Numbered from the stretch's first letter, positions 6,301-32,415 are shown. The stretch: 55,529 bases of DNA from Candidatus Omnitrophota bacterium (GCA_043798215.1 JAZDOX010000075.1:1-55529); one strand, 5' to 3'. Numbers and translations are program-made. Notes: generated from the sequence alone by a model not told the origin.

Positions 6301-8167
6301 AACTTTGGCGCATAGTGTTTCCTCGACATGGGCCATAGACTCCAATTCTGACGCGGCGGCAATTTCGCTGTCTGAGATCAATGTTATTCAAGGAGAAAAA
6401 TCTTTCAAACTTGATTACGCTAATCCTTTGGCTGGCAGGGCATTTTATGATTTGCCCAATTTAACGGAGAAATGGGAAGTTACAGCCGCCAATCCTCCAT
6501 CCTCCGGCGCCATTAACAGGGCGAAGTTCACTTTTGATTTATATAATGCCGGAGATGCCAAATATGTTGATTTAGCTGTTTGCGCGGGTCCAAATTTGAC
6601 GTGGCATGAGTCGACTTTGCAGCCGCTTAATACGGGATGGAATAAGGTTACAGTTGATTTATCTTCCGAGACCTGGAAATCAGCGGTTACTGATTGGAGT
6701 TATGCGGGCGACATCGCTGATTTAGACGATGTCAGGAAGATCTCCATAGGCTTGTTTGGGTATTCTGCGCCGGGGTCGGCATATGTGGATAATATCAATA
6801 TATTGGAAGACGACGGTTTTGTTATCTATCCGGGCGACGAGATAACAAATATCATTTCAGCTCATGCGCGGATGATGGCGGATAAATTTGAGGATTTGCC
6901 TGTAGTAGATACTACTCCGCCCGCCATACCCATAGTTACTACTGAAAAGGCGTCTCTTCCTGGAAGCAGGACAGAGTATTCTATTAAAGCTAAGTGGGAA
7001 TCTTTCGATTCAGAATCAGGCGTAGCGCAATATCTATTTGCTATAGGCACATCTAAGGGGTCAAATGATGTTCAGGATTGGAATCTTTGTAAGGCCAATG
7101 TTACCAAAATTACAACAGTAGATTTAGATTTAGCGATATTTTCAGGCAAGACCTATTACTTTACCGTCAAAGCTAAAAATGGCGCAGATCTATGGAGTGA
7201 GCCGGGTTATTCAGAAGGAATAATTTTTGTAGATACGACTCCGCCCCCCGCGGTTAATTGCTCCATCAAGATAAACGACAATGCTCAATATGCCGCCTCT
7301 ACCGTTGCAACTCTAACTTTATCAGCTGCAGATGCGCCGGGTGGCAGCGGTATGGGAACGGGTAGCCAGATGAAGATATCCAACACAAATCCTGCCGACT
7401 GGACCGCCATTACGACAGTAGTTTATGCCACAACCAAGTCTTGGACGCTGACTACAGGAAGCGGCACAAAGACCGTCTATGTCAAATTCAAGGATGCGGC
7501 AGGCAACTGGTCAAATGCCGTATCCGATACTATCATATTGGATACTACCCTACCCGCTGTGCCGGTTGTCACTGATGACGGGACATACACAACAAGCACA
7601 ACCCAGCTGCACGCTTCGTGGAGTTCAAGCGATCCTGAGTCGGGCATAATCGAGTATAAATATGGAATTGGCGCCTCAAAGGGAGCCGCCGATGTGGTAA
7701 GCTGGACAAATACTACCTCAACCAGTGTTACCGGAACAGGTCTGTCTTTGCAATACGGCAAGACCTATTACTTTACAGTTCACGCCAAAAATGGCGCTTT
7801 TGTATGGAACGGCCCCGGTTATTCGGATGGCATAACCATAAACGATATTACTCCCCCTTCAATAAGCCATACTCCTATTGCTTCAGCTCCTAAGAATAAG
7901 CCAGTTACATTTACCGCCACTGTTACGGACTCAACATCAGGAGTAAAAGAGGTAACTCTTTATTGGCGTAAATGGATACGAAGAATATTTTGGTGGGAAT
8001 GGAGCGACCTGCGCCCTTTACTTATGAGCCCGCAAGGGAATAATAAATATAGCGCAATTCTTATGGCTTCTCAAGTTGAGGATAGAAAGATAAAATATTA
8101 CATCACAGCTAAAGATAAGGCGAACAACGCGAGAAGTACGTCAACATATGTTATATCAAGATATTAA
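3320..8167 (+). CDS. 1615-aa secreted multidomain glycoside hydrolase, GH5 catalytic core (mannanase-like) with CBM-like and FN3/Ig-like modules
   Basis: Signal peptide. Two tandem N-terminal modules (ERYGFENGTQGW... / QRYDFETGIQGW...). GH5 signatures VRTWAFGEG, FAWEVFNEPRC (acid/base Glu) and VIMEEFG (nucleophile Glu). Two tandem C-terminal modules (WESFDSESGVAQYLFAIG / WSSSDPESGIIEYKYGIG). RBS aagagg. Confidence 0.85.
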   Translation: MRKFFYLFWVSSLLIISVAYSQPVERYGFENGTQGWVASDYQFGRAVSNVTQSSDRAVVGAYSLKAMVDLIGGSSTNASGEAYVDMRNNPPLGVITPINLQGQTLTAYIYCPVGSRGDVTAPNGIQILLKDENWKSLYSKWINIVENSWIKLTLTINDTCDFDSTKVIVVGFKIGAGLGSSARYNGPIYLDTVSFDVGGTPPMPSAENQRYDFETGIQGWADSNYTYGQAVVSVEQSSERAALGASCLRSNADLAGGDTHKSYGEAYVDMRYSPPSGVTAPLSLNGVEVSAWIYCPAGSRGDGNNPNGVQIFVKDENWKAEYSSWTSIFENVWFKITLTPCLSAPLNGSMDEGFDPARIINIGVKIGTAAGSTALYKGPVYFDVLSFSQPSVPLSDYTYDFGSAGALNGIPRWDVDSGWGALAWDSVYLSEEALTASAKFSMTSDKERKGFVNIFYAPPIYLTNKDNHIIRAEVKFDPQPGPLDFIGVIWVYDKEGERWYRNDYKNIGGGAGWSVLSFDLDDNMAYDPDLGFGETMPLGQIVKVGIQLYANADYTGRVYFDNITIGGREITSKYPQNNTGLVERSGTNFVLGGQKFYFAGANAEYLFEKSVPIEEKVLDSAKDMNLGVVRTWAFGEGEDASFQPIRGKFNQSAFEHLDRLIAYAGKKGIRLMSPLVDNWGHYGGMYKYMDWALAEHPESVPDYDDKGNFVDKINKNDAFHDQFFVNQYCKQWYKDYASYLLNRTNSITGVRYKDDPNIFAWEVFNEPRCGSDVSGKRVHDWIVEMSNFVKTIDPNHLVGTGEEGAYIMAKDQADQFSGWQDYPYNYWIYGLTQGSSGVDFLSDHKTTDTTVFWQDYEWGEKEIIGPIHSELREGALNVDFCSFRAYIDASEFNLYRVDPYDQSLKWIEQHMNDAFNVIGKPVIMEEFGIHTVGYIYGGGFGERKFHRRPAYTVSDRMNIFQKYYDYIYDNNIAGSLFWNLGYDGMRADLFDGCETLAHSVSSTWAIDSNSDAAAISLSEINVIQGEKSFKLDYANPLAGRAFYDLPNLTEKWEVTAANPPSSGAINRAKFTFDLYNAGDAKYVDLAVCAGPNLTWHESTLQPLNTGWNKVTVDLSSETWKSAVTDWSYAGDIADLDDVRKISIGLFGYSAPGSAYVDNINILEDDGFVIYPGDEITNIISAHARMMADKFEDLPVVDTTPPAIPIVTTEKASLPGSRTEYSIKAKWESFDSESGVAQYLFAIGTSKGSNDVQDWNLCKANVTKITTVDLDLAIFSGKTYYFTVKAKNGADLWSEPGYSEGIIFVDTTPPPAVNCSIKINDNAQYAASTVATLTLSAADAPGGSGMGTGSQMKISNTNPADWTAITTVVYATTKSWTLTTGSGTKTVYVKFKDAAGNWSNAVSDTIILDTTLPAVPVVTDDGTYTTSTTQLHASWSSSDPESGIIEYKYGIGASKGAADVVSWTNTTSTSVTGTGLSLQYGKTYYFTVHAKNGAFVWNGPGYSDGITINDITPPSISHTPIASAPKNKPVTFTATVTDSTSGVKEVTLYWRKWIRRIFWWEWSDLRPLLMSPQGNNKYSAILMASQVEDRKIKYYITAKDKANNARSTSTYVISRY

Positions 8168-8308
8168 GAAGGGACACACCTTAGGTGTCGAAGCAGACGG
8201 TTTTATATGGGCGCAAACGTATTTGGAGAATATTTTGGCGGGAGTGGAGCTACTCGTGTGTTTTGTCTATAACTTCGCAGGGAAGCAATATTTACAAAAC
8301 AACCCCCC

Positions 8309-8511
8309 ACTACATTGTAGTATAAATTTTATACTGTTCGAGCGAGGCCATTGGCCGAGTCGAGAACTATGGATATGCCTGCCTGTGCGTGGCACGCAGA
8401 CAGGGACAGGCAGCAGAACTTCTCGACTCATCCGCCTCAGGCGGATTCGCTCGAAGAATAAGCGCTTGCTGTCTCCAAGGACTACCATGAATTAATGTTA
8501 CAATGCGCTAC
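8309..8511 (+). mobile_element. Family A element, copy A3 (extra palindromic insert in the variable loop)
   Basis: Same TIRs and core, with the GGCCATTGGCC hairpin variant. The loop carries GCCTGCCTGTGCGTGGCACGCAGACAGGGACAGGCAGC. Confidence 0.9.
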
Positions 8512-8568
8512 TTGCTTCAGAGTAAGTCACTAATTAATTGGCCTCCTGAGCAGCAGCTTAACTATTTC

Positions 8569-8597
8569 TTGACTTTTTGCGTCTGGGATAATAGTAT
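8569..8597 (+). promoter_or_regulatory. Sigma70-type promoter upstream of the ABC operon
   Basis: TTGACT (8569-8574), 17-nt spacer, TAGTAT (8592-8597). Confidence 0.5.
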
Positions 8598-8620
8598 TAG
8601 AATATATTTGATGAGGGATT

Positions 8621-9847
8621 ATGGCTATGAAAAAGGCTATTCATATGTTTCCTTTAGTTTTTATCTTATTTTGTTTTTCCGGTTGCGCGGAAAAAAGTTC
8701 CGATAAGGAAATCTTGATGTGGCTGGTTGGTTCCGAGAAACAAGCCCAAACGATAATCGAGTTAGGCGGGGAATTCTTTAAAGAGACCGGAGCCAAGGTA
8801 AGATGCGAAGCGATTGCGTGGGGCGAGGCGCATTCAAAATACCTTACTTCCGTAGTGGGAGAAGTAACCCCTGACATAGGGACAATGGGCCTTACATGGG
8901 GGACTGAATTCGGAAACCTCGGCGCGATGGTGGATATTAAGAAAGCTTTCCCTGAAGATTTTGACGAAATCAAAAAGAGCCTATTTCCCGGCTTATCAGC
9001 CTCAATCGAATATAAAAATACCGTTTACGGCATTCCGTTTGATATGAGCGAACATATCCTTTACTACAGGACGGATATGATAAAACAGCCCCCGAAGACA
9101 TGGCAGGAATTAACCGAACTCTTGGGCGAATTGAACAAAGACGGCAAGACGATGATCATAGATTGGGGCAATTTGAGCTGGGTTGGGTATTCACCGTTCT
9201 TGTGGCAGGCAGGCGGAGATTATTATGATAAAGACGGCATAACCGCCGCCTTGAATTCAGAAGAAGCAAGAATCGCCATGGATTTTTTCACCAATCTTTA
9301 CATAAAATATAAGGTTCCCACGGAAACGAAGCCTTTTGAGGGTGGGATGCGCTCAGGCGATTATCCTATGTGCATATCCGGAAATTGGAAGATAACCAGT
9401 CTTTTGGATATAGCGCCGGAGATAACAGGGAAATGGGCCGTTGCTCCATTGCCCGCGGGTCCGACAGGAAAACGCACAGCTTTTGTGGGCGGCAGGGTTA
9501 TGGGCGTATTTAGCCGGTCAAAATTCAAGAAAGAATCCTGGGAATTTATAAAATTTTTATCGCGGCCGGATATTCAAGTAAGGTTATATGAGGAGACGGC
9601 AAGATCTCATGATACCTATCTTCCTCCCAATATGCAGACATGGGATATGTTGCCTATGGATGCGAAATTCAAAGAACCGTTAAGAACTCAAGCGCTTGAC
9701 GCTAAGGGCCCTCCTTCGGTTTTAGGATGGGATCACAGCACAAGATTTATAGATACGGCCGTTCAACTGATTACCCTTAAGGGCAAGGACGCAAAAAGAG
9801 CGCTCGAAGAGGCTAATATGGAATTGAACAAGAGGATTCAAAAGTGA
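8621..9847 (+). CDS. ABC transporter extracellular sugar-binding lipoprotein (CUT1 / family-1 SBP)
   Basis: Lipobox LFCFSGC. The length and composition fit a sugar SBP. It is the first gene of an SBP-permease-permease operon. No ATPase gene lies in the locus. Confidence 0.85.
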   Translation: MAMKKAIHMFPLVFILFCFSGCAEKSSDKEILMWLVGSEKQAQTIIELGGEFFKETGAKVRCEAIAWGEAHSKYLTSVVGEVTPDIGTMGLTWGTEFGNLGAMVDIKKAFPEDFDEIKKSLFPGLSASIEYKNTVYGIPFDMSEHILYYRTDMIKQPPKTWQELTELLGELNKDGKTMIIDWGNLSWVGYSPFLWQAGGDYYDKDGITAALNSEEARIAMDFFTNLYIKYKVPTETKPFEGGMRSGDYPMCISGNWKITSLLDIAPEITGKWAVAPLPAGPTGKRTAFVGGRVMGVFSRSKFKKESWEFIKFLSRPDIQVRLYEETARSHDTYLPPNMQTWDMLPMDAKFKEPLRTQALDAKGPPSVLGWDHSTRFIDTAVQLITLKGKDAKRALEEANMELNKRIQK

Positions 9848-10749
9848 GGTCATTATTATTAAAGGAATTCGATAAACAGAAGTGGGCGTATATTTTTATT
9901 GCTCCCGCCCTGTTAATCTTCTTTACCTTTCTTATCATTCCAGTTTTTGTTTCTTTGTATTGGAGTTTTACCGAATATAATATTTTGCAGCCCCCGCATT
10001 TTGTGGGATTAAAGAATTACGCGACTATTCTTTTTCAAGATGCCCGGTTTTGGAAAGCGCTCTCAAACACGATAATTTATGTGGCAGGGACGGTTCCCAC
10101 GAGCATAGCAATCGCGCTGCTTATCGCCCTCGCCATAGACCAAAATATAAGATTCAAGAATTGGTACAAAACGTTTTTCTTTATACCAAGTATAACCTGT
10201 ATAGTGGCCGTCGCGGTTATCTGGAAATGGCTTTATTCTTCCGGAAAGTACGGTCTGCTTAACCATATGTTATCCGCGATAGGGCTTAGCCCCGTTGAAT
10301 GGCTGGGGCTCAAGTGGTCTCTTCCCTCCATTATTATAATGAGTGTATGGGGGGGATTGGGATATAATATGATATTATTCTTGGCGGGCTTGCAGGGCAT
10401 ACCGCAGGTTTTTTACGAGGCCGCGGAAGTGGATGGAGCCAGCGAGTGGGATAAATTCAAGAATATCACTCTGCCTTTACTTAGGCCCACGATGTTCTTT
10501 GTGATCGTTATGTCCATAATAAGTTCTTTTCAGGTCTTTGAGCAAGTCTACATAATGACCTATAGTTCCGAAGGCGCCGTAGGCGGAACGCTGGATTGTG
10601 CCCTTACTATAGTGGCATATTTGTATGAGACCGGATTTCAGCGATTTTCCATGGGTTATGCCTCCGCTTTGGCGTACCTTATATTTATATTCTTATTTAT
10701 AGTTACCCTAATTAACATTAAATTAGTCGAAAAGAAGGTAGAGTATTAA
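9844..10749 (+). CDS. ABC sugar transporter permease (MalF/UgpA type)
   Basis: Multi-TM protein with EAA-loop region EAAEVDGASEWDKFKNITLPLLRP. The GTG start overlaps the SBP stop (GTGA). Confidence 0.9.
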   Translation: MRSLLLKEFDKQKWAYIFIAPALLIFFTFLIIPVFVSLYWSFTEYNILQPPHFVGLKNYATILFQDARFWKALSNTIIYVAGTVPTSIAIALLIALAIDQNIRFKNWYKTFFFIPSITCIVAVAVIWKWLYSSGKYGLLNHMLSAIGLSPVEWLGLKWSLPSIIIMSVWGGLGYNMILFLAGLQGIPQVFYEAAEVDGASEWDKFKNITLPLLRPTMFFVIVMSIISSFQVFEQVYIMTYSSEGAVGGTLDCALTIVAYLYETGFQRFSMGYASALAYLIFIFLFIVTLINIKLVEKKVEY

Positions 10750-10752
10750 AAT

Positions 10753-11628
10753 ATGGAAATAAGAGAATTAGAGACTCAGGGCGACGTTAAAGCGGGCAGC
10801 GTTAAACGTCGGCAGGCCGCAATAAGGTTGGTAGTATATATATCTTTGACATTGGGCGCAATGGTGATGATTATCCCGTTTGTTTGGATGATAATCACTT
10901 CTTTCAAGCCTCTCGAAGAGATAAGCACGTATCCGCCCAGTTTTTTTATACGCAAACCCACCGTGGCGGCTTATATTGAACTCTTTAAGATGGTTCCGAT
11001 GGCAAGGTATTTCTTTAACAGCCTGGTAGTTACCCTAACGATTACGTTGACCAACCTGTTTTTTTGCTCATTGGCCGGTTACGCTTTCGCGAAGCACAGA
11101 TTTTTTGGCAGAGATAAGATTTTTTTATTTTTAATAGGTTCGATGATGATTCCCTGGCAGATTAATTTAATACCAAGCTTTGTGATTGTTAAAAAATTCG
11201 GATGGTTAAATTCTTACCCCGGGCTTATAGTGCCCGCCATGTCAAGCGCCTTCGGGATATTTTTAATGAGGCAGTTTATTATGGCTATACCCGATGATTT
11301 AATAGATGCCGCCAAGATAGACGGCTGCAGCGAATTTACCATATACCGATTGGTTATACTGCCCCTGATCAAGCCCGCCTTGGCGTCTTTGGCTATTTTT
11401 ACTTTTATGGGTCAATGGAATAATTTTGTCTGGCCGTTGGTTATAGTCTATTCTTCAAAGATGCGCACTGTTCCTTTAGCTCTTTCGGTTTTAAACGGGC
11501 AATTTGGGGATAATTTTGCCATGGTAATGGCGGGAGCCGTTGTGGCGACGTTGCCCGTGCTGATAGTTTTTATAGCATTCCAGAAATATTTTATCAAAGG
11601 AATAACTCTTACCGGCCTCAAAGCTTAA
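10753..11628 (+). CDS. ABC sugar transporter permease (MalG/UgpE type)
   Basis: Multi-TM protein with EAA-loop region DAAKIDGCSEFTIYRLVILPLIKP. It starts 4 nt after the previous permease. Confidence 0.9.
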   Translation: MEIRELETQGDVKAGSVKRRQAAIRLVVYISLTLGAMVMIIPFVWMIITSFKPLEEISTYPPSFFIRKPTVAAYIELFKMVPMARYFFNSLVVTLTITLTNLFFCSLAGYAFAKHRFFGRDKIFLFLIGSMMIPWQINLIPSFVIVKKFGWLNSYPGLIVPAMSSAFGIFLMRQFIMAIPDDLIDAAKIDGCSEFTIYRLVILPLIKPALASLAIFTFMGQWNNFVWPLVIVYSSKMRTVPLALSVLNGQFGDNFAMVMAGAVVATLPVLIVFIAFQKYFIKGITLTGLKA

Positions 11629-11668
11629 TTGATGGAGAGTCCGGAGAGATTTATCTATAGTTTAATTA

Positions 11669-12697
11669 ATGATGATGCGAATCAGCAAGAAGAACGTGAC
11701 CATAAAAGATATCGCAAAATGCGCGGGGGTGGCTCATTCTACGGTTTCTTTGGCTATGAACAGGCGCGCCCACGTATCCCCAAGAATGAGGGAAAAGATA
11801 CTAAGGATTGCCGAGGAGATGGGCTATCAGCCTAATATGATGGCCAGAAGTCTTATTTGCAAAAAATCATCCACCGTCGCTGTTATATATCCCGAAGATT
11901 CGCGTTTTTTCGAGAAGACGTATTTTTTGATGTTGATTGAAGGGATTCAAAACGCATGCAAGAAACATAATCGAGGCCTTATGTTTTTCGGGATTGACTT
12001 GGCAAAGGGCGAGACTTGCCAGAAAATTTCAAAGAAATGGCAGGTTAACCCCATTATAATAATTAATGCCGATTATGCGAAAGGCATCTTTAGCGAAATA
12101 AAGGAATTAAACAGCAATGGAATATATTTTTCGTTGATAACGAAATATTTCGGGAGCGAGATGGTTAATTCTCTCTTCGTCGATAATTTTGAGGGAGTAA
12201 AACTTGCCTTGGAGTATCTTGCGGGGTTGGGGCATAAAAGAGTCGGGTATATAAGCGGCAATCTGGATTCATTCGACGGGTTTGAGCGATTAAACGCGTT
12301 CAAAAAAATCTCCGCGAACTTAGGTTTGGACCAGAGCGAAGAGCTTATCACCTACGGAGACTTTACCTTCGAGAGCGCCGAGAGAGAAATCTCGAAGCTA
12401 TTGAGGTTAAAGAGGCGTCCGACTGCTGTATTCGCGGCAAATGATTATATGGCTCTGGCGGCTATAAGAAAGATAAAGACATCCGGTTTATCCATACCAA
12501 AGGATATAGCGGTTATGGGATTTGATGATACTCTTGAAGCCGCGTATGTGGAGCCCGGCCTCACGACAATTAAACAGCCGCTAAGGGAGATGGGCGAGAA
12601 GGCGGTTGATTTAGCCATACGTAATATGGAGCACCCCGCTTTAAAACCGCAGAGTATGATCTTTAAGCCGGAGCTTATAAAAAGGCAATCTTGCTAA
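11669..12697 (+). CDS. LacI-family transcriptional regulator
   Basis: N-terminal HTH VTIKDIAKCAGVAHSTVSLAMN followed by a periplasmic-binding-fold sensor domain (GYISG..., VMGFDD). Three consecutive ATGs make the exact start uncertain by up to 2 codons. Confidence 0.9.
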   Translation: MMMRISKKNVTIKDIAKCAGVAHSTVSLAMNRRAHVSPRMREKILRIAEEMGYQPNMMARSLICKKSSTVAVIYPEDSRFFEKTYFLMLIEGIQNACKKHNRGLMFFGIDLAKGETCQKISKKWQVNPIIIINADYAKGIFSEIKELNSNGIYFSLITKYFGSEMVNSLFVDNFEGVKLALEYLAGLGHKRVGYISGNLDSFDGFERLNAFKKISANLGLDQSEELITYGDFTFESAEREISKLLRLKRRPTAVFAANDYMALAAIRKIKTSGLSIPKDIAVMGFDDTLEAAYVEPGLTTIKQPLREMGEKAVDLAIRNMEHPALKPQSMIFKPELIKRQSC

Positions 12698-12735: not shown

Positions 12736-13036
12736 ACTAATACGAACGCATTAAGTAAAGTGTCATTGCCCGGCTTGCAGGCTGGGCCATAACCCTTTTT
12801 TTTGACTAAATAGGTCAACATATTGTAGCTGCCCAATTTATTGGGCCGATATGTTGTGCTCGATAAATCGAGCAACTACATTATGACCCAGTCTCTTGAC
12901 CGGGCAATCCAGACACCAAGTAACATATCTTTATAGCGTGACTGGATTCCCCGCATTCGCGGAGAATGACAGCATGTATTTGATTTCATAGAAACTTATG
13001 AGATTGCCTATAGTCGATTAATGCGTTTGTATTAGT
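12736..13036. repeat. Four-level nested element (L > D > E > B core)
   Basis: L TIR ACTAATACGAACGCATTAA (12736-12754) / TTAATGCGTTTGTATTAGT (13018-13036). D is 12761-12971, E is 12782-12891, and the B hairpins are 12831-12846 and 12858-12873. Confidence 0.85.
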
Positions 13037-13044: not shown

Positions 13045-13073
13045 TTGACATATATTTCAGGGTGTAGTATAGT
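13045..13073 (+). promoter_or_regulatory. Sigma70-type promoter of the P1-P4 operon
   Basis: TTGACA (13045-13050), 17-nt spacer, TATAGT (13068-13073), about 30 nt upstream of the P1 start. Confidence 0.6.
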
Positions 13074-13102
13074 AATGTCGTAAATAACGCTAGGATCTTT
13101 AA

Positions 13103-13630
13103 ATGAAAAATAGAATTACTATCATTTTTTTGATCGCGGCGGTATCGCTTTTATTCAAACTATTTTTATGTTGCCCCTGCCTTTTTGCTTCTTCAAATGA
13201 CGCCGGGTTAAGCATAAGCGTTGGCGTTAATTCTGTATTCAGCATTAAAGTTAGTCCCACGTCTCTTGATTTTGGAAGCGCCGACCCGGGCGCTGTCACG
13301 CCCACCAAGACAGTTGTTATCGAGTGTGTTACCAATAATAATAATCAATGGATTGTTCAGATAAGCGATGCCGCTGAGTTGACGGCAGGCGTCTATACCA
13401 TTGCCAACGGTGAATTTAACTGGTGGGGATCCAGCAATGGTTCGGGTTATTGGAATCCGGGGACAGCAAAGATGAGCGTCGAGCCCCAGACTTTTTATAC
13501 TGCCGCTTCGGACGAATATATCACCACCGCACCGGTGGTTTTAACCGTTAATCTCAATGTAGATATCCCTAATTACCAACCAGCCGGCACATATGTTACG
13601 ACCATTGAATTTACTATGTGCGAACAATAA
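13103..13630 (+). CDS. Small secreted beta-sandwich protein P1, putative fibre/pilin-like subunit
   Basis: Signal peptide. The mature N-terminus has strictly alternating hydrophobic residues (GLSISVGVNSVFSIKV). Motifs SLDFGSADPG, QWIVQI, FNWWGSS and the C-terminal QPAGTYVTTIEFTM resemble SCPU/DUF4402/WxL-type surface subunits. It is a paralog of the next gene. Confidence 0.6.
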   Translation: MKNRITIIFLIAAVSLLFKLFLCCPCLFASSNDAGLSISVGVNSVFSIKVSPTSLDFGSADPGAVTPTKTVVIECVTNNNNQWIVQISDAAELTAGVYTIANGEFNWWGSSNGSGYWNPGTAKMSVEPQTFYTAASDEYITTAPVVLTVNLNVDIPNYQPAGTYVTTIEFTMCEQ

Positions 13631-13663
13631 ATCCCATTAGAGATCTTCGGCCTCCAATGGGAT
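13631..13663 (+). terminator. Hairpin between P1 and P2 (partial terminator / attenuator candidate)
   Basis: ATCCCATTAGAG...CCTCCAATGGGAT forms an 8 + 3 bp stem with one mismatch, followed by AAATTTT. Confidence 0.45.
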
Positions 13664-13676
13664 AAATTTTGATGAT

Positions 13677-14201
13677 ATGTTTAAATATAAAAATAAGAGA
13701 TTTAAAGCCGGCGCAGGGAAGAAGAAAGTTTTAATAAGTTGCTTTTGTTTCTGCGTTATTTTTTCGATGGTATCTTTTTTTAGGTCCGCGGAAGCCGCTT
13801 TTGGGATTACGTTGGATGCCTATAGTCTATCTTTTGGCAGTTTTAATCCCGGAGAAATAAAGACCGATGTTCCCGAAGGGTCCATAATAGTGACTTGCGC
13901 TTCTGATCAAGGCAATGCCTGGAATCTTAAGATAAAGACCGAATACCCGCTCGTCAATTCCTTAAATCCGGCATCTACAATTCCCAATGCGAATTTATGG
14001 TGGTACGGGGTAAGTTCGACAGGCGCGGGGACGCTCATAACAGCCAGAGAAGATTTTAGTTCCGAAAAGACAGTTTACTCGGCGCCCGCTGGAGAAGGGA
14101 CAAGCGGCGTAGAGATTAAAGTAAAGTTCGAGATATCTGTGCCCAAAGACGTTCAGTCCGGTCAGTACAGCAGCAATATTATATTCACAATTATCGAATA
14201 A
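13677..14201 (+). CDS. Small secreted beta-sandwich protein P2, paralog of P1
   Basis: Signal peptide. It shares the SL.FGS..PG, C.S....W.L.I (AWNLKI), NLWWYG and VQSGQYSSNIIFTI motifs with P1. Confidence 0.6.
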   Translation: MFKYKNKRFKAGAGKKKVLISCFCFCVIFSMVSFFRSAEAAFGITLDAYSLSFGSFNPGEIKTDVPEGSIIVTCASDQGNAWNLKIKTEYPLVNSLNPASTIPNANLWWYGVSSTGAGTLITAREDFSSEKTVYSAPAGEGTSGVEIKVKFEISVPKDVQSGQYSSNIIFTIIE

Positions 14202-14223
14202 CATTGCTGTTTTAATTAGCATT

Positions 14224-14429
14224 TGTCATTTCCCGATTTACAGACTGGGATACAATGTTGTGCTCGATTTATTGAGTACAACATATCGGCCCAATATCAT
14301 GCTTGAGGTAGACCCGCCTCTTGCGCCAGAGGCGCATCAAGCTGAGGCGGGAATTGGGCAACTACATTATGTTGATCTATTTAGTCAAGAAAAAGGGCTA
14401 TGTCCCAGTCTCCAAGTTGGGCAATGACA
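14224..14429. repeat. Nested D/E/K palindromic block
   Basis: TGTCATTTCCCGA ... GGGCAATGACA arms, a B-core, and an insert GCTTGAGGTAGACCCGCCTCTTGCGCCAGAGGCGCATCAAGCTGAGGCGGGAA. Confidence 0.8.
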
Positions 14430-14513
14430 ATATAAAATTGAATCTCAAAACTAAATTCTCGTCGTGACGTAGAAATTAATTTAGACACAAGCGATTAAAT
14501 AAGGAACATAAAA

Positions 14514-15632
14514 ATGCGCCCATGTTTAAAAAAATCGTTATATTTAACGGCGGCGGTAATTACACTAGTCTTTTTTCTCGGGCGAATGCCGAGAGCCGAG
14601 GCATTTTCAATGAATTTAGATCCTCCCCGGCTTGAGCTTTCAGCGCCACCTGGCGGCAGCAAAAGCGGGGTGATTAAAGTCGGCAATCCCGGGGATGTTT
14701 CTTTGAAGTTAAAGGCATATGTGCAGGATTGGATTTACGATCCGCCTGGAAACAGGGTCTTTAAGCCGGCAGGGACCACACCTTTATCCTGCAGCAACTG
14801 GATTCATCTTTACCCGGAGCAGCTTGAGGTAAAACCTGGAGAGAAGGCCGAGATTATGTATACTTTAAGTGTGCCTGCGGACGCCAAGGGCGGTCGTTAT
14901 GCGGTGATATTTTTTGAAGGAACATTGGGTTCCGGCTCCACGGAAGAGGGGGTTATCGTCAGGCTTGCCGGTAGAATGGGAACAATTGTTTTAGAAGAGA
15001 CAGAAGGCACCGTGATTAAAAAAGGAGAGATCGCTTCTTTAAAAATTAGCCGGCCTGACGAGAATAAGCCTTTGGATATCGAAGTTTCATTTAAGAATGA
15101 AGGCAATGTTTTTCTTGCTCCTTCGGGAGTGGTAAATATAATTGATAAAGAAGGAAATTTTTTCGGGCGGCAGGAATTTCAACTTAAAGGCACTTTGCCG
15201 GGAGATACGATCGAAGGTAAAGTCTCATTGTTAAGCAGTCTGCCTGAGGGAGAATACGATGTTATAGCCACGCTGGACCTCGGAGCGGAGGAAGCGGCGG
15301 TTAAAGAAACCAAGCTGGCAGTTATCAAGAAAGGCGAGATCGAGAGATTCGACGTCGCCGTTTTGCAGGATAAGCCGCCGGTTTTTTCTATTAATTTCAG
15401 CAATGACGGGAATTTAAACATAGAAACAGAAGGCAAGATAGACATTGTAGATGACAACGGTCAAGTGGTTGCTTCCTCGATCGCGGCTAAATCTTTGATT
15501 GCTCCTGACAGCCGAAAGGAGATATCCATAGCTTTGGATAAGAAATTGCCGTCCGGAGAGTATAAAGCCAGAGCTATTTTTAATTTTGACGGCCAAACTG
15601 TTTCTAAGGAAAATCGCTTTTCCATTAAATGA
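14514..15632 (+). CDS. Secreted protein P3 with three Ig-like/beta-sandwich domains, candidate periplasmic chaperone or fibre component
   Basis: Signal peptide ending RAEA. Domain 1 (LELSAPPGGSKSGVIKVGNPGDVSLKLKAYVQDW ... GGRYAVIFFEG) recalls PapD-like/DUF916 N domains. Domains 2 and 3 are an internal duplication: both start VIKKGEI and share F.N.GN, G.i.I.D..G and LP.GEY. Confidence 0.55.
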   Translation: MRPCLKKSLYLTAAVITLVFFLGRMPRAEAFSMNLDPPRLELSAPPGGSKSGVIKVGNPGDVSLKLKAYVQDWIYDPPGNRVFKPAGTTPLSCSNWIHLYPEQLEVKPGEKAEIMYTLSVPADAKGGRYAVIFFEGTLGSGSTEEGVIVRLAGRMGTIVLEETEGTVIKKGEIASLKISRPDENKPLDIEVSFKNEGNVFLAPSGVVNIIDKEGNFFGRQEFQLKGTLPGDTIEGKVSLLSSLPEGEYDVIATLDLGAEEAAVKETKLAVIKKGEIERFDVAVLQDKPPVFSINFSNDGNLNIETEGKIDIVDDNGQVVASSIAAKSLIAPDSRKEISIALDKKLPSGEYKARAIFNFDGQTVSKENRFSIK

Positions 15633-15703
15633 ATGAAAAATACCGAGAGATTTTTTTTGGAAAGAGAACAAAGAGCGGATCGTTGCGAAATGCGCAATTT
15701 CGC

Positions 15704-15743
15704 GTCATTCTGAACGAAGCCCGAAGGGCGAAGTGAAGAATCT
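15704..15743. repeat. H-type short repeat (GTCATTCTGA..GTGAAGAATCT)
   Basis: A second copy lies at 38383-38418. This copy overlaps the putative RBS and GTG start of P4. Confidence 0.7.
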
Positions 15744-18552
15744 AAATTTGAAAGAGCAAATTTATGAAGAAGGGATTCTTCGGTCGGCCACAGCCTGCCC
15801 TAAACTCCGTCGAAGGGGCCTCGCCCAGAATGACAAAAGTGGTATTTCGCAACAGTCCCAAGAGCGATTTTTATGTGTAGTCCTTATGTTTATTATTTTA
15901 GCCCCTCTTTGTGCGTTCGCAGAGCAGGAGAGCGAAGAGCCTTCTTTATTTCCTATTTCTCCAAAGATTGAAATTGAAAAAGGGGCGTCGGCGTTGATCC
16001 CCGTTAAGAATGTTTCTCGTTTTTTAAGCGTGAATCCAAGGATTGCCTCTGCCCAGAAGATTTCCGCTGAGAGTTTATCCGTAACGGCGACTGGTCTGGG
16101 AGCTACATTTATCCATATATGGGATGAGAGGGGCAGGAGCACAGTAAGGATAGAAGTTAAGCAGAAGGGCGCTAAGGCCAGAGCAGAAAGACAGAAGAAG
16201 ATAGCCGAGGAAAGATTAGTTGAATCGTTTAAAGCGAAATACTGGTTTGACTTTGAGAGTATCTTTTCTCGTCCGGATGAGCCTAATGTGGCAAAGTACA
16301 GGTATACTCGCCATTATCATAATTTAGCGGTGAACGGAGAAACTCCATTAGGCGATGTGGATTCGAACTTTAGATTTGAAGATAGAAACGAAGGAAAAGA
16401 ATTAACCGAAGCCGCAGTTTATTTAAAAAACAAGGATTTTGATTTAACGCTTGGCGATAACTACGGTGATTTTTCCCCTCTGACCCTGCCTTATATCCGG
16501 TCTCAAGGCGTCAATCTTAAGTCGTCCGTGTACGATAATATGGGCTATAACCTTATATGGGGGGCTACGGGCAAAAGGCTTTGGGGCAGCAAGATATCCA
16601 ATCTTGGACAGCTAAGCGGTTATTTTTCCGGCATAAGGACTAATATTTCTCCGAATAAGCAAACATCCGTTAGCGCCACTTTATTGAGATCAAATGGTCT
16701 GCAGGATAGAGTCAGCAAATATGTTCGCGCGGTGGGAGGGAATTTTAATCTTGATGGGTTTATATTTGACGGAGAGTACTCTTTTGCTGAAAGAGGCAAC
16801 GCCTGGCAGACAGAATCGGAATTAAAAGTAGACAGATTTAGCCTTAAAGGGGCGTACAGGGACATAGACCCTTCCTATGAAACAGTTACCGCCGGTGTAG
16901 GTTATAAAGGTCAAAAGGGGGTTTATCTTACGTCAAGCTTTTACCCTTTTGAGTTCTTGACGTTATCCACGGGATATGATTATTACCTTAACAGACTTCT
17001 TCCCAACGCCGCCGAGCCTAGCCAATATAACACTAACTTTGTCTCCAGCCTTGATTTGAATCTGCCTTGGCAGGCGAAGTTCAGCGGCTCAATTTGGTAT
17101 AGAGACAGGCTTGGAGAGCTTTACCCGAGCGTTTACCAAGGACAAACCTACCGGATTTCCCGCTCATTTAAAATTTTCGGTAGAGATATTGATCCATATT
17201 TTTCTTTTATGCCCAGCGCTTATGAGGCCGTTTCTTCGCAAGAAAGAAATTATAAAGATAAAATGACATCTATAGGCGTGAGAGCAAGACTTTTTCGTTT
17301 CCTTAGCTTGAATTTGCAGGAACAACGGGATATTAGAAGATATACATGGGACGCCTTCAAGGCTACGCCGCGGCGTTTTAAAGCGGGTCTTGTTTTTAAT
17401 TCGCAAATTGCCCGATCGCCGCTTAACGCTATGGTAAAGCTGGATTACCAAAGAGATAAAGATGTTGTATCGAGAGGCAGTATCTTTTCGGGAGAGAAGA
17501 TTGTTTCCGGAGAGGCCAAGTTTAGCTATAAACCGTCTAAGGATTTTGAATGTTATATTAGAGGCAAGATTCAACATATAAAGGGTGTTATAAATAAAGA
17601 TTTGGATAGAGTTGAGACTGAAGTTTTTGCCGGAGCGAGTTATTTGATGGATACCGGTTTTAGGTGGCAGCCCAGCGGAATCGTAGCCGGCGCCGTCTTT
17701 AAGGACATAAACGGCAACGGCATAAGAGATGAGGGAGAGCCGGGGGTGGCGGGCGCGAGAATCTTCGTTAACAAGAACACATCGGCTTTCACGGATGCCG
17801 GCGGTAAATATATTATAAAAGGCGTAAAAGGAGTTGATGCCGGCGTGACTTTAGACGTCTCGACTATAGCAAAAGGCTATGTCTGCACAGATGCCAATCC
17901 GAAATCGCTGGTTATAGAGTCCGGCAAGATTTCTGAAGCGAATTTCGGAATTTTTACAAAATCCGACATAAACGGAATTGTGTTTAATGACTTGAATGAA
18001 AACGGCATTTTTGACGAAACCGATTTTGGCGTGCCAAATGTCTTGATAAGTCTGCAGGGTTCAAGATTTACGGTTACCGATTCATCGGGTTATTATTATT
18101 TTAAAGGCATTCCTCCGGGGGAGTATAATATTATTTTGAAGGCGGAGACATTGCCTTCAGGTTATCTGCCGAAGGGCCCCGCAGGGATAAAAATTACGGC
18201 TCTTGAAGGAGAGGCTTATAGGCGCGATTTCGCCGTTTTCGCTCTTCGCTCCATAATGGGTAAAGTTTTTGTGGACAGTAATTATAACGGTTTGTTTGAA
18301 GACGGAGAATCAGGCGTTGCCGATGTGGAGATGAGATGCGGTTCTCAGGTTGCTTTGACAGGAAAAGACGGCTCTTACGTGTTAAAGAATCTTTCCGCGG
18401 GAGAGCAAAAGATAGAGATGAGTGAAAAGACTATCCCTGATTCCTGTCGCCCGGAGGCACAAAATTATAAGATTGTTACCCTTGCTCCGCAGGGAGAAAT
18501 TAAAAGAGACGTGGATTTCGCTGTGATTTCCGAACGCACAGGTCCAAATTAG
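15733..18552 (+). CDS. Outer-membrane protein P4: secretin-type pilus N domain + predicted beta-barrel + three SdrD-B/CnaB-like repeats
   Basis: IEIEKGASALIPVKNVSRFLSVNPRIASAQKISAESLSVTATGLGATFIHIWDERG matches the CpaC/RcpA-type pilus-formation N-terminal domain. About 450 aa of amphipathic beta-strand sequence follow. The C-terminus has three repeats of the type G.VF.D.NGNG..D..E.G. The start is uncertain (GTG 15733, TTG 15748 or an internal ATG). Confidence 0.65.
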   Translation: MKNLNLKEQIYEEGILRSATACPKLRRRGLAQNDKSGISQQSQERFLCVVLMFIILAPLCAFAEQESEEPSLFPISPKIEIEKGASALIPVKNVSRFLSVNPRIASAQKISAESLSVTATGLGATFIHIWDERGRSTVRIEVKQKGAKARAERQKKIAEERLVESFKAKYWFDFESIFSRPDEPNVAKYRYTRHYHNLAVNGETPLGDVDSNFRFEDRNEGKELTEAAVYLKNKDFDLTLGDNYGDFSPLTLPYIRSQGVNLKSSVYDNMGYNLIWGATGKRLWGSKISNLGQLSGYFSGIRTNISPNKQTSVSATLLRSNGLQDRVSKYVRAVGGNFNLDGFIFDGEYSFAERGNAWQTESELKVDRFSLKGAYRDIDPSYETVTAGVGYKGQKGVYLTSSFYPFEFLTLSTGYDYYLNRLLPNAAEPSQYNTNFVSSLDLNLPWQAKFSGSIWYRDRLGELYPSVYQGQTYRISRSFKIFGRDIDPYFSFMPSAYEAVSSQERNYKDKMTSIGVRARLFRFLSLNLQEQRDIRRYTWDAFKATPRRFKAGLVFNSQIARSPLNAMVKLDYQRDKDVVSRGSIFSGEKIVSGEAKFSYKPSKDFECYIRGKIQHIKGVINKDLDRVETEVFAGASYLMDTGFRWQPSGIVAGAVFKDINGNGIRDEGEPGVAGARIFVNKNTSAFTDAGGKYIIKGVKGVDAGVTLDVSTIAKGYVCTDANPKSLVIESGKISEANFGIFTKSDINGIVFNDLNENGIFDETDFGVPNVLISLQGSRFTVTDSSGYYYFKGIPPGEYNIILKAETLPSGYLPKGPAGIKITALEGEAYRRDFAVFALRSIMGKVFVDSNYNGLFEDGESGVADVEMRCGSQVALTGKDGSYVLKNLSAGEQKIEMSEKTIPDSCRPEAQNYKIVTLAPQGEIKRDVDFAVISERTGPN

Positions 18553-18598: not shown

Positions 18599-18898
18599 TG
18601 TCATCGTCTGGCTTGACCAGACGATCCAGACATGTTAATCCGTGACTGGATTACCCGAACAACAGACTGTGACATAACCCTTTTTCTTGACTAAATAGAT
18701 CAACATATTGTAGTGCATTGTAACATAAATTTTATACTGTTTGAGCGAGGCCATTGGCCGAATCGAGAACTATGGATATGCCTGCCTGTCGGCAGACAGT
18801 CCTATCAAGCTGAGGCGGGAATCGAGCAACTACATTATGACCCAGTTTGCAAGTCGCCTGCCTGCCGAAGCTTTTTGGCGTAGGCAGGGGTAATGACA
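18599..18898. repeat. Nested block: D element > E element > truncated family A copy
   Basis: TGTCATCGTCTGG...CCAGACGATCCAGACA, E arm CATAACCCTTTTTCTTGACTAAATAGATCAACATATTGTAG, then A4, then ...CAACTACATTATGACCCAG ... GGGGTAATGACA. Confidence 0.8.
18711..18802 (+). mobile_element. Family A element, copy A4 (left half only)
   Basis: TAGTGCATTGTAACATAAATTTTATACTGTTTGAGCGAGGCCATTGGCCGAATCGAGAACTATGGATATGCCTGCCTGTCGGCAGACAG, then a junction into a different repeat. Confidence 0.8.
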
Positions 18899-22962: not shown

Positions 22963-23165
22963 TGTCATTGTCCGACTTGCAGACTGGGTCGTAATACCAT
23001 TTTTCGTCATTGCGAGGAGCGAACGAAGTGAGCGACGAAGCAATCTCCGTCGGTGATAGAGATTGCTTCGGGCCTTCGGCCCTCGCAATGACGGTGTTTT
23101 TGTAATTATGACCCAGTCTGTTGTTCGGACAATCCAGACACCAAATTGCGCTTTATAGCGTGATG
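22963..23165. repeat. Nested block: D > E > J (CGTCATTGCGAGG...CCCTCGCAATGACG)
   Basis: The arms and TIRs are directly readable. The D right half is truncated. Confidence 0.8.
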
Positions 23166-23861: not shown

Positions 23862-24711
23862 ATTGAGGTTATCTCTTTCCGCCTCAGATTTTAACTTGGA
23901 ACACACCTTAGAATGTGGCCAAGCTTTTCGATGGGAAAAATCAGACAACGGTTACCAAGGCGTGATTGGCAGAGCGCTTTTAAAGATTAACTATGACGGC
24001 GCCCGCTTACAGGTTGAGTCAAGTTCACCCCTAAGCAAAGAAGCTCTCACAGAGTATTTTGGCTTGAATGAGAATATGCCGCGCATACTAAAAGAAATAG
24101 ACCTCGATAGCCATATCCATAAAGCGATTCTTAAATTTCATGGTTTACGCGTCTTAAATCAGGATCATTGGGAATGCCTCGCTTCTTATATTCTTTCTTC
24201 CTATAATAATATAGCCCGTATTAAGATAATGATAGAAAAACTCTCGAGAGCTTTTGGCGAAAGGCTGACTCTTGGCTGTATTGAACGGCGCTCTTTTCCT
24301 TCCATTGAAAAGATTGCCGCCGTTAATCTGTCGGCGCTTAAAAAATTAGGCTTAGGTTTCAGGGCCTCGTATTTGAAAAAAACTGCCGGGGACCTTTTAG
24401 CCAAAAGACTTGATTTAGACAGCCTTGAGAACTTAAGCTATAATGAGGCGAAGACGAAACTCACACGTCTTAAAGGAGTGGGAGAAAAAGTCGCCGATTG
24501 CGTTTTATTGTTTTCTTTTAAGAAATATGAGGCTTTTCCGGTAGATGTCTGGATAAAGAGAGCGGTGGAACGGTTTTATTTCAATGGCAGGCCTGTCAGC
24601 TCTAAAAGAGCGGCGGAATTCGCGCGTGAATACTTTGGCCGTTATGCCGGTTACGCGCAGGAATATCTTTATCATTATATGAGATGCGGATATAGGCAGG
24701 CTGGGCCATAA
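23848..24711 (+). CDS. ogg: 8-oxoguanine DNA glycosylase / AP lyase (Ogg1-type, HhH-GPD)
   Basis: ECGQAFRW near the N-terminus. HhH-GPD motif [15 protein letters not shown] followed by FPVDVW. Overlaps dcd by 14 nt. The last codons and the stop lie inside a repeat element. Confidence 0.8.
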
Positions 24712-24845
24712 CCCTTTTTCTTGACTAAATAGATCAACATATTGTAGTTGCCCAATTCCCGCCGGAGGCGGGTCTGCCTCAGGCATGATATTGGGCCGAT
24801 ATGTTGCGCTCGATAAATCGAGCAACTACATTATGACCCAGTCTC
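24696..24845. repeat. E element with K insert, overlapping the 3' end of ogg
   Basis: CTGGGCCATAACCC ... ATTATGACCCAG. The hairpin GCCCAAT..ATTGGGC is split by TCCCGCCGGAGGCGGGTCTGCCTCAGGCATGAT. Confidence 0.85.
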
Positions 24846-32337: not shown

Positions 32338-32415
32338 AATGCTAATTTAGATAGCAATGGCGCGATAGTTGATCGTAATCTGCTATCAGCCAGAATACGT
32401 CATAGGAGGTAAAAT

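Follow-up and report, generated by a model that had tools for sequence, protein, structure and literature searches.

We observed that the window, a stretch of 55,529 nucleotides from a Candidatus Omnitrophota bacterium, carries four same-strand ORFs (P1-P4), whose coordinates match exactly the four co-directional genes that an earlier sequence-only reading had placed at 13045-18552. In the public annotation, all four genes are hypothetical only. Each of the four proteins begins with a hydrophobic segment followed by an AxA-type site (as judged by eye), in line with the signal peptides claimed for all of them. The cluster contains no ATPase gene. The features are collected in Table 1. The start codon of P4 is uncertain, as the GTG lies upstream of the public gene call at the ATG, but the mature protein is identical either way.

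Table 1. Features of the P1-P4 cluster (positions in the window)
Feature	Position	Strand	Description	Basis
Sigma-70-like promoter candidate	13045..13073	+	TTGACA-17-TATAGT, 30 nt upstream of P1 start	Consensus match only
P1	13103..13630	+	175 aa; candidate rod-type (polymerising) subunit; signal peptide, N-terminal extension, beta-sandwich domain ending ...FTMCEQ	ORF
P1 N-terminal extension	13190..13237	+	Residues 30-45, SSNDAGLSISVGVNSV; candidate donor strand, alternating L36, I38, V40, V42	
Hairpin	13631..13663	+	Immediately 3' of P1 stop codon	
P2	13677..14201	+	174 aa; candidate tip- or cap-type subunit; P1 paralogue without N-terminal extension	ORF
Dispersed repeat element copy	14242..14434	.	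Within P2-P3 gap	blastn within window and repeat search
P3	14514..15632	+	372 aa; candidate periplasmic chaperone; signal peptide and three beta-sandwich domains	ORF and AlphaFold2
P3 candidate G1-type donor strand	14967..15002	+	Residues 152-163, RLAGRMGTIVLE; long last strand of domain 1	Secondary structure and pLDDT
P4	15733..18552	+	939 aa from GTG 15733, or 888 aa from ATG 15886; outer-membrane usher-like protein	ORF and AlphaFold2
P4 N-terminal periplasmic domain	15964..16161	+	PF13629, pilus formation protein N-terminal region, residues 78-142	Pfam, E 1e-9
P4 beta-barrel	16231..17652	+	About 26 strands, without plug-sized insertion	DSSP string of model
P4 C-terminal domains	17674..18531	+	Three SdrD_B / CarboxypepD_reg-type beta-sandwiches, expected periplasmic	Pfam SdrD_B in three stretches, E 6e-26; model

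The gene order (subunit or subunits, P2-type subunit, P3, P4) was found again in at least 12 distinct loci. It is repeated in L001-L004, L007-L014, L016 and L017, which indicates that the arrangement is more than chance. The named records that bear the cluster belong to Candidatus Omnitrophota and Candidatus Margulisiibacteriota, two poorly known uncultured phyla; P0192, the P4 homologue of L017, groups with the Margulisiibacteriota records. The synteny that the sequence-only reading had proposed to check is thus kept in relatives from two phyla. Between P2 and P3 the window has a gap of 312 bp, while the coordinates of the relatives give -4 to 112 bp. The dispersed repeat in this gap interrupts the system and is no part of it.

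We further examined the two small proteins. P1 and P2 share 29% identity over 139 residues (E 9e-14) and are paralogues, as had been proposed, and orthologues of P1 in L002 and L003 are 45-47% identical to it. When 16 rod-type subunits were aligned, the columns of L36, I38, V40 and V42 were 94-100% hydrophobic and the intervening columns 6-19%, so that these subunits have an N-terminal strand with strictly alternating hydrophobics. The mature P2, on the other hand, begins at the first core strand (AEA|AFGITL). The subunit encoded immediately upstream of P3 was without the N-terminal strand in 10 of 11 distinct loci, and several rod-type paralogues are present per locus. The free C-terminus of the subunits (...T-x-T-E) is strictly conserved. 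FimH/PapG-type tips have no strand to donate, and by analogy the absence of the strand from P2-type subunits is what would be expected of a pilus tip. The single-domain tip PamT of the Pam pilus likewise has no linker strand to donate (10.64898/2026.03.03.709456).

The subunits gave only weak matches in Pfam/NCBIfam, every one under its curated cut-off, and the best of them were all to families named for pilins or fimbrial adhesins: among 26 subunits, DUF4402 (4/26), SCPU (3/26), SEF14_adhesin (1/26) and CPR_Pam_pilin_C (4/26, best E 1e-3). P1 aligned with positions 17-137 of the 138 in the SCPU profile (PF05229), but at 15.6 bits (E 0.021) it did not reach the gathering score of 22.4. Its match to CPR_Pam_pilin_C covered the last 26 residues only and lay far under the cut-off (15.7 bits vs 55). 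The WxL domain of Pfam was seen in none of the 26 subunits at E ≤ 1, and a PDB search with the subunit profile (E ≤ 10) gave no WxL chain. Comparison by hhalign with FimA and with a verified CsuA/B sequence gave probabilities below 1% (CsuA/B 0.4%). These faint sequence signals hint at the SCPU, DUF4402, SEF14 and Pam pilin families rather than at WxL.

The AlphaFold2 model of P3 (pLDDT 92.8) has an N-terminal helix at residues 4-23 and three beta-sandwich domains (about 31-165, 170-271 and 273-372), in agreement with the three Ig-like domains described earlier. With Foldseek, the best specific matches of this model were 9i25_C, an Enterococcus WxLIP in complex with a WxL protein (1.3e-10), and the chaperone CsuC (5d6h_A, 2.4e-8), followed by CfaA, SafB and FimC; the E. 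faecium WxLIP structure 9i1y was matched as well. The alignments with WxLIP and five pilus chaperones extended over about 240-260 columns. For CsuC, CfaA, SafB and FimC the E values were 2e-8 to 5e-7 with target-normalised TM-scores of 0.5-0.6, and TM-scores overall were 0.31-0.60. By sequence, the P3 family matched DUF916 (26/39) and DUF3324 (15/39), weakly and mostly under the gathering score; P3 had no PapD_N match in Pfam, and hhalign against FimC gave a probability of 0.6%. Of the DUF916/PapD-like character that had been assigned to P3, the DUF916 side is seen in both sequence and model and the PapD side in the model; the putative helper P3 is probably related to a Gram-positive surface-protein family (WxLIP).

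Two features of P3 recall PapD-type chaperones. The sole low-confidence stretch of the model is the loop at 139-151, which leads into the final strand of domain 1, and the same loop is poorly ordered in free PapD-type chaperones. R154 is present in at least 90% of the 39 sequences and in all of the 21 closest. By this analogy, residues 152-163 with R154 are a candidate G1-type donor strand. We also observed that the C-terminus of P3 and of its close relatives is a beta-strand, and that they are without the transmembrane helix that WxLIP carries at this end. [quoted passage not shown] P3 proteins encoded beside P4 are helix-free. This fits a P3-type chaperone that is soluble in loci with a P4-like pore gene and tethered to the membrane in loci lacking one.

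The P4 model (pLDDT 89.2) contains the N domain, the barrel and the three C-terminal beta-sandwiches, in the order that the sequence-only reading had given them. PF13629, present in 39 of 51 P4 family members, is the N-domain type found on the CpaC/RcpA secretins of Tad/Cpa systems. However, P4 could be rejected as a secretin, since it has no Secretin domain and the remainder of the protein is a monomeric barrel in the model; Tad ATPase and platform genes are also absent from the cluster. The 26 strands of the barrel lie between residues 116 and 589 (888-aa numbering), and the sole break is a 17-residue loop at 229-245. With an even number of strands, the N- and C-termini would lie on one side of the membrane. 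FimD/PapC-type ushers have 24 strands and a plug domain, whereas the DSSP string of P4 shows no plug; another domain may gate the pore. No Pfam/NCBIfam family covers the barrel of P4, nor does any Pfam family among the 51 members.

When the P4 model was compared with the PDB, the 15 best matches were all FimD/PapC, with about 767 aligned columns and E values down to 6e-22. The next class was the OccK porins, at about 1e-9. The TM-scores were low (0.29-0.47), and barrels and Ig folds match promiscuously. Against barrel-only usher structures the E value was about 1e-11, ahead of the porins by just 2-3 orders of magnitude, suggesting that much of the usher signal of P4 comes from the shared domain order. 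The Usher (PF00577), PapC_N and PapC_C families were absent from P4 at E ≤ 1 and from the 51 family members at E ≤ 0.01, and hhalign of the family against FimD gave a probability of 0.95%. The earlier statement that P4 is not a FimD-type usher thus stands by sequence but not by architecture, and an unrelated, novel outer-membrane component is not what the model, with its FimD/PapC matches and their domain order, indicates. P4 is better called, on its predicted structure, a very divergent and apparently plug-less usher-like protein.

These observations led us to compare the cluster with known systems. With the chaperone-usher pili (Fim/Pap, Csu/CupE) it shares the logic and domain order, as far as genes and models can tell: several small secreted subunits (of putative beta-sandwich fold) with an alternating N-terminal strand and one without, a periplasmic Ig-fold protein, and an outer-membrane protein built of N domain, large barrel and C-terminal beta-sandwiches. 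It differs in having no detectable sequence homology in P1-P4, in carrying PF13629 where ushers have PapC_N and three SdrD_B-type domains where they have CTD1/CTD2, in the third domain and WxLIP-type sequence of P3 (the PapD-fold chaperone has two domains), and in its hosts. The absence of a sequence link to Fim or Csu in profile comparisons bears out the earlier view that the parts fall outside the classical families.

The WxL/WxLIP (DUF916-DUF3324) clusters of Firmicutes, which include Csc of Lactiplantibacillus and the E. faecium WxL loci, resemble the present cluster in P3 and in having one such protein encoded beside at least two small secreted beta-rich proteins. The likeness of the P1/P2/P3 trio to these clusters had been noted earlier; it holds for P3, whereas a WxL cluster encodes at least two WxL-domain proteins and neither P1 nor P2 shows detectable WxL similarity in the Pfam and PDB profile searches. 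WxL proteins have been described as attached to peptidoglycan rather than polymerised. The present host is a diderm, P3 has an extra domain, and an usher-like outer-membrane gene always adjoins P3. In the WxL system, an AlphaFold2 prediction inserted a strand of DUF916 into WxL, and the role described for WxLIP was to stabilise its partner, not to be recycled as a chaperone (PMC10599100).

The Pam pilus of the Candidate Phyla Radiation has Ig-like pilins, donor-strand exchange and PapD/FimC-like chaperones in its operon, and its authors reported the family as exclusive to that group (10.64898/2026.03.03.709456). The two systems also resemble each other in the strand-less tip (a candidate tip in the case of P2), and some subunits weakly match the C-terminal Pam pilin model. 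However, Pam pilins have two domains, and Pam chaperones are membrane-anchored with no outer-membrane component, whereas P3 is unanchored and P4 is present. With P1 also under the cut-off, we rejected the cluster as a Pam pilus.

Together, we consider it reasonably probable that P1-P4 are an undescribed and highly divergent machine of the chaperone-usher type, which uses donor-strand exchange to build a thin fibre on the cell surface. The core logic of the sequence-only reading (polymerisable subunits, an Ig-fold partner in the periplasm and an outer-membrane pore dedicated to them) agrees with the synteny and with the P3 and P4 models. From the gene content, the kept order, the predicted folds and the presence or absence of the N-terminal strand, we infer the following course of binding and assembly, including donor-strand complementation among the subunits. 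Sec would export all four proteins, and the soluble P3, with its WxLIP/PapD fold, would capture unfolded P1 and P2 in the periplasm. Its residues 152-163 would complete the beta-sandwich of the subunit, while R154 would grip the free C-terminus. The P3-P2 complex would then dock at the periplasmic N domain of P4, and P2 would enter the pore first and become the distal cap, because it has no N-terminal strand to donate. P1 subunits would join singly, the N-terminal strand of each (L36, I38, V40, V42) filling the groove of the previous subunit and displacing P3, and the fibre would grow out through the barrel of P4. The three C-terminal beta-sandwiches would act as CTD1/CTD2 do in ushers, holding the arriving chaperone-subunit complexes. 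The fibre would probably serve for attachment, possibly to polysaccharide-rich particles or other cells.

Several observations speak against such a chaperone-usher-like machine. The hhalign probabilities are below 1% against FimD, FimC, FimA and CsuA/B alike, the fold matches are geometrically weak (TM-scores of 0.29-0.47 for P4 and 0.31-0.60 for P3), P4 is plug-less with two strands beyond the 24 of FimD/PapC, the N-terminal strand of P1 might simply be an edge strand of the usual kind, and the 312-bp repeat-bearing gap splits P2 from P3 in this window. A non-filamentous surface display of the WxL/Csc type, in which P3 stays bound to P1 and P2 and keeps them at the cell surface in monomeric or small oligomeric form, P4 serves as their export pore or outer-membrane anchor, and no long polymer arises, would suit the closer sequence relation of P3 to WxLIP than to PapD (the DUF916 and DUF3324 matches), its top specific structural match to a WxLIP bound to a WxL protein, and the stabilising role described for WxLIP. 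We nevertheless regard this as unlikely, since P3 has no membrane anchor, P1 and P2 match neither the WxL family of Pfam nor any WxL chain of the PDB, and a polymer, but not a display complex, would require the conserved division into subunits with and without the strand and the several rod-type paralogues at each locus.

The gene neighbourhood raises the possibility of polysaccharide capture and uptake, with P4 as an oligosaccharide channel of the outer membrane and P1-P3 as glycan-binding beta-sandwich proteins that serve the adjacent glycoside hydrolase and sugar ABC transporter. The genes ahead of the cluster in the window encode a sugar ABC transporter, a LacI-family regulator and a 1615-aa protein whose galactose-binding domain is of the mannanase type; L016 and L017 have a GH26+CBM9 protein and ABC permeases immediately upstream, homologous permeases are found in L012, and P4 also matches OccK-type substrate channels. 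However, in most Omnitrophota loci (L001-L004, L008) the flanking genes are unrelated, e.g. mnmE, folE, DUF212, a YkuD-family gene and accA, and P4 matches porins with E values over 10 orders of magnitude worse than those for ushers. We also know of no solute channel in which four periplasmic domains flank a 26-strand barrel, and sugar genes would equally surround an adhesive fibre that binds a polysaccharide substrate. Uptake is for these reasons quite improbable. Even less credence is given to a secreted matrix or sheath, in which P1 and P2 would polymerise extracellularly by strand exchange, TasA-like, after export through P4 and with no ordered usher-style assembly. The plug-less P4, with an N domain of the secretin-borne type, is compatible with such a simpler export pore, but ordered assembly at the pore is favoured by the tip/rod split of the subunits, by the conservation of a chaperone-like P3 and by a domain order like that of ushers.

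Within the chaperone-usher-type reading, we tentatively suggest, at somewhat less than even chances, that the system is a separate and unrecognised branch of the donor-strand-exchange pili, in which a soluble WxLIP-type chaperone works with an usher-like pore that has about 26 strands, no plug and an N domain of the secretin type; among diderms it would correspond to the Gram-positive WxL/WxLIP clusters and to the Pam pili. If this is true, WxL/WxLIP, Pam, the present system and the classical chaperone-usher pili would be one ancient family, and the ultra-small uncultured Omnitrophota and Margulisiibacteriota would have a fibre for attachment, perhaps to polysaccharide substrates.

We also evaluated the non-coding features next to P1. 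The candidate promoter was the top sigma-70-like match (11/12) within 12.5-19 kb, a region mildly enriched in such matches (19 vs 10.3 +/- 3.7 in shuffles). Its sequence makes it plausible as a promoter. It may serve all four genes, as proposed earlier, although the 312-bp repeat-bearing gap lies between P2 and P3. The hairpin behind this putative major subunit gene had a folding energy of -13.1 kcal/mol (z -1.65, not significant), and could possibly act as an attenuator or mRNA stabiliser.

The four genes of the fibre cluster were found exactly where the sequence-only reading had placed them, and the two candidate subunits P1 and P2, which it had called paralogous, were 29% identical over 139 residues (E 9e-14). 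For P3, the candidate periplasmic chaperone, the public call is 340 aa; this would cut off a signal peptide that all homologues retain, so we preferred the 372-aa start. The public start of P4, the usher-like outer-membrane protein candidate, is ATG 15886, which gives 888 aa, and the hydrophobic segment and AFA|EQ site are identical from either start. The choice is ambiguous (window 15633-15900): a GAAGGG ribosome-binding-like motif precedes GTG 15733, which adds a 51-residue charged leader ahead of the hydrophobic segment, and from ATG 15886 the signal peptide is very short and lacks basic residues.

The region's top promoter-like site was TTGACA-17-TATAGT at 13045-13073. Such sites were only about twice as frequent in the region as in shuffles, and this one is a plausible promoter candidate. 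A hairpin after P1 was considered as a terminator or attenuator and rejected, its folding energy not being significantly better than that of shuffles (z -1.65). The P2-P3 gap is 312 bp and holds one copy of a dispersed repeat element; in relatives, as computed from locus coordinates, it ranges from a 4-bp overlap up to 112 bp.

Table. Positions of the features discussed (window nucleotides unless another locus or the protein is named)
Feature	Positions	Remarks
P1	13103-13630	175 aa
P2	13677-14201	174 aa
P3	14514-15632	372 aa
P4	15733-18552	939 aa from GTG
P4 model, small N-terminal beta domain	residues 27-92	888-aa numbering
P4 model, helix	residues 96-107	888-aa numbering
P4 model, 26 strands	residues 116-589	888-aa numbering; longest insertion 17 residues
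P4 model, three beta-sandwiches	residues 597-882	888-aa numbering
Glycan-degradation and uptake locus	3320-12697	directly upstream of fibre cluster
Similar upstream arrangement	L016 1-3665	ABC permeases + GH26+CBM9
Similar upstream arrangement	L017 1-3373	ABC permeases + GH26+CBM9
Homologous permeases	L012 143-2887	
Dispersed intergenic repeat	2669-2866	
Dispersed intergenic repeat	3138-3237	
Dispersed intergenic repeat	12756-12894	
Dispersed intergenic repeat	14242-14434	
Dispersed intergenic repeat	18663-18846	
Dispersed intergenic repeat	23105-23144	
Dispersed intergenic repeat	24696-24845	
Dispersed intergenic repeat	32269-32359	
Dispersed intergenic repeat	37262-37332	

In Pfam searches P4 matched PF13629 (residues 78-142) and three SdrD_B domains, and the roughly 480 residues in between matched no Pfam family in P4 or in 50 relatives. 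The structure predicted from a 51-sequence alignment had a pLDDT of 89.2. In Foldseek the best 15 PDB matches of this model were all ushers (15/15). Full-length FimD/PapC complexes were matched at E 6e-22 to 3e-18 over about 767 columns, PapC bound to PapD-PapG (6cd2_C) at 9.5e-14 over 771 columns, and usher barrels alone (2vqi, 3ohn) at about 1e-11 over about 550 columns; OccK porins and TonB-dependent receptors were matched at about 1e-9 over about 510-680 columns. The TM-scores were low (0.29-0.47). At the level of the predicted model, we take the likeness to ushers in architecture to be real, and the likeness of barrel to barrel to be weaker and not decisive. The strand count of the predicted barrel is even, which should place all four soluble domains of P4 in the periplasm, as in ushers. 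Many P4 relatives (alignments A1 and A7 of P4 homologues; L001 10001-13156, L002 2446-5661) are longer than the window's P4 by 100-250 residues at the N-terminus; this extra part contains TPR repeats in 27 of the 51, or a charged repeated 'QLEREIALTNEMLDLRE' segment.

The sequence-only reading had seen a PapD/DUF916-type resemblance in P3, and this was borne out by both sequence and model. DUF916 (WxLIP_PGBD) was matched by 26 of the 39 P3 homologues found (best E 2e-6) and DUF3324 by 15 of them (best E 1e-8), and PapD_N gave no match to P3 in Pfam. The AlphaFold2 model, built from the 39-sequence alignment (pLDDT 92.8), has a signal helix and three beta-sandwich domains. Ciliary Ig-repeat proteins aside, its Foldseek matches in the PDB were the WxLIP of E. 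faecium (9i25_C at 1.3e-10; 9i1y), together with the pilus chaperones CsuC, CfaA, SafB and FimC at E 2e-8 to 5e-7, the latter over about 240-260 aligned columns with target-length TM-scores of 0.5-0.6. On these sequence and Foldseek matches, P3 is a distant WxLIP-family protein with a predicted PapD-like fold. Domain 1 ends in a long strand, residues 152-163 (RLAGRMGTIVLE), which holds the nearly invariant R154 and directly follows the sole poorly predicted stretch of the model, loop 139-151. We take these to lie where PapD-type chaperones have their flexible F1-G1 loop and G1 donor strand, and by this analogy we infer that strand 152-163 may serve as a G1-type donor strand.

We compared 26 aligned subunits and the termini of 14 from L012, L014, L016 and L017 (six overlap), and observed two classes: a rod type, comprising P1 and every gene that does not adjoin P3, versus the gene directly upstream of P3. 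In rod-type subunits a segment of 15-22 residues separates the signal-peptide site from the first core strand, and four alternating positions of this segment hold a hydrophobic residue in 94-100% of sequences, against 6-19% for the positions in between (n=16). For P2 and its orthologues, the mature protein opens with the first core strand in 10 distinct loci, L014 being ambiguous. Most aligned subunits end exactly in ...T-x-T-E (P1 in ...TMCEQ), with a conserved G-x-Y about 12 residues ahead of the C-terminus. Weak matches, all below curated cut-offs, were seen to DUF4402 (4/26), SCPU (3/26), SEF14_adhesin (one) and a C-terminal Pam pilin model (4/26); three of these four families bear pilin or fimbrial-adhesin names, and P1 covered nearly the whole SCPU profile (E 0.021). 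From the N-terminal strand pattern, the two classes and these matches, we infer that the subunits would have an open groove filled by donor-strand complementation. Tandem subunits of 325-340 aa with two P1-like domains also occur (L001 7022-8044, L009 4867-5844, L010 53-1030, L011 2992-3969). In that of L001, which ends in 16 prolines, an alternating strand precedes each domain, the second lying between the two, and this second, linking strand may act in cis to complement the first domain.

Direct sequence comparison with the classical components was negative throughout. Using hhalign, probabilities were <1% for the P4 family against E. coli FimD, for the P3 family against E. coli FimC, and for the subunits against E. 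coli FimA and the PDB-verified CsuA/B. Searches of PDB sequences gave nothing meaningful for P3 or for P4 and its barrel (phmmer or profile searches), nor for the subunit-family profile.

The sequence-only reading had made its case depend on synteny in relatives, and the gene order clearly recurs. The genome scan used an alignment of the 21 closest P3 sequences. In L001-L004, L007-L012, L014, L016 and L017 a single P2-type gene is preceded by one to four P1-type genes and followed by P3 and then P4, and the P3-P4 pair is also adjacent in L013. In L009, L010, L012 and L017 the P4 position lacks a complete recovered ORF, L017 having a called gene there (P0192). Where the records with loci carry a name, it is Candidatus Omnitrophota, Marinamargulisbacteria, Candidatus Margulisiibacteriota or, for one MAG, "Planctomycetia". 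The N domain and barrel of P4, used as query in an exhaustive profile search, gave 347 clusters at 50% identity, 202 of them at E <= 1e-30; among the 150 listed, lengths were mostly 900-1100 aa. Public names of the family, where given, were "hypothetical" or "pilus assembly protein N-terminal domain-containing". In the literature searched, we found no description of the P1-P4 cluster and nothing tying Omnitrophota to usher or fimbrial systems.

The C-terminal element is a beta-strand in P3 and its close relatives, and a transmembrane helix with a basic tail in the distant homologues P0038, P0039 and P0042. The P0039 loci encode a 207-aa P1-family homologue (hhalign probability 92%, E 7e-7) and no P4-like gene. 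The chaperone-plus-subunit module thus comes either anchored, where P4 is absent, or soluble, where P4 is present. L005 (6015-9308) and L006 (2472-5765) hold a related cluster that has no P4-like gene. It comprises a P1-like 207-aa protein, a 311-aa protein sharing its C-terminal motif, and a P3 homologue of 435 aa that matches DUF916 and has a C-terminal transmembrane helix; it adjoins phage-like genes and a T2SS-F-like gene, and may be a membrane-anchored counterpart of the P1-P4 system.

The most economical reading, which we hold with moderate confidence, is that P1-P4 form a chaperone-usher-type pathway. Sec would export all four proteins, and P3 would cap the groove of P1 and P2. P2, having no strand to donate, would enter P4 first and so form the tip; strand exchange would then polymerise P1 copies, and the fibre would be extruded via P4.

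P3 is a distant member of the Firmicutes WxLIP family that lacks the membrane anchor. We consider a non-polymeric, WxL-like display complex unlikely. A polysaccharide capture or uptake module has its neighbourhood in its favour: the window cluster follows a sugar locus encoding a solute-binding protein, two ABC permeases, a LacI-family regulator and a protein of 1615 aa that combines a mannanase-type galactose-binding domain with a weak GH42-like stretch. The corresponding place is taken by ABC permeases and a GH26+CBM9 enzyme in L016 and L017; L012 encodes homologous permeases. However, most Omnitrophota loci lack such neighbours; we therefore treat the sugar locus as a hint at the fibre's binding target, not at the function of P4. 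We regard a polysaccharide module as quite improbable, and a secreted matrix fibre whose assembly is not ordered at the pore as very improbable.

The chaperone-usher-type pathway proposed for P1-P4 resembles chaperone-usher pili in working principle, but P4 and the subunits did not group with ushers or pilins by sequence. The P4 model departs from known ushers in that the plug domain is missing, the barrel has about two extra strands, the N domain is of the Tad-secretin kind, and the C-terminus carries three SdrD_B domains of the Ca-binding type. To our knowledge, work on chaperone-usher pili has been almost confined to Proteobacteria, and the family tree of these pili rests on ushers recognisable by sequence. 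If P4 has kept usher architecture with sequence likeness lost or never present, the pathway would extend to two candidate phyla, and P4 would offer a natural plug-less usher for mechanistic comparison. For Omnitrophota, P1-P4 is a candidate attachment organelle. We rate the cluster as conserved, unannotated, architecturally distinct and evolutionarily informative, on the support of predictions; the mechanism, if confirmed, would be unsurprising. The Pam pilus of CPR bacteria has anchored chaperones and no outer-membrane part, and its tip-versus-rod logic parallels the P1/P2 split (preprint 10.64898/2026.03.03.709456). It becomes testable whether the P1-P4 machine has membrane-anchored relatives in the Gram-positive WxL/WxLIP clusters and the CPR Pam pili.

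The dispersed repeat resembles a miniature mobile element or a REP-like one. About nine partial copies of roughly 60-180 nt, 82-100% identical to one another and in both orientations, lie in the window, and all related loci lack it. The promoter candidate, P1 and P2 lie between two inverted copies, at 12756-12874 and 14261-14434, with arms of 83 nt (86% complementarity) and 36 nt (94% complementarity); recombination between these copies would flip both subunit genes. We rejected an invertible phase-variation switch because the element is dispersed across the window, and judge the arrangement to be probably a by-product of a genome-wide repeat, with no dedicated switch.

A 203-aa protein at 2027-2638 has a C-terminal PEP-CTERM sorting motif (E 1.2e-6), which implies that an exosortase system is probably present in the genome. 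Nearly all listed ORFs of at least 150-200 aa in the window are on the + strand, and GC skew is positive in every 2-kb step except the last (-0.001), the pattern expected of a single replichore whose strand bias is strong.
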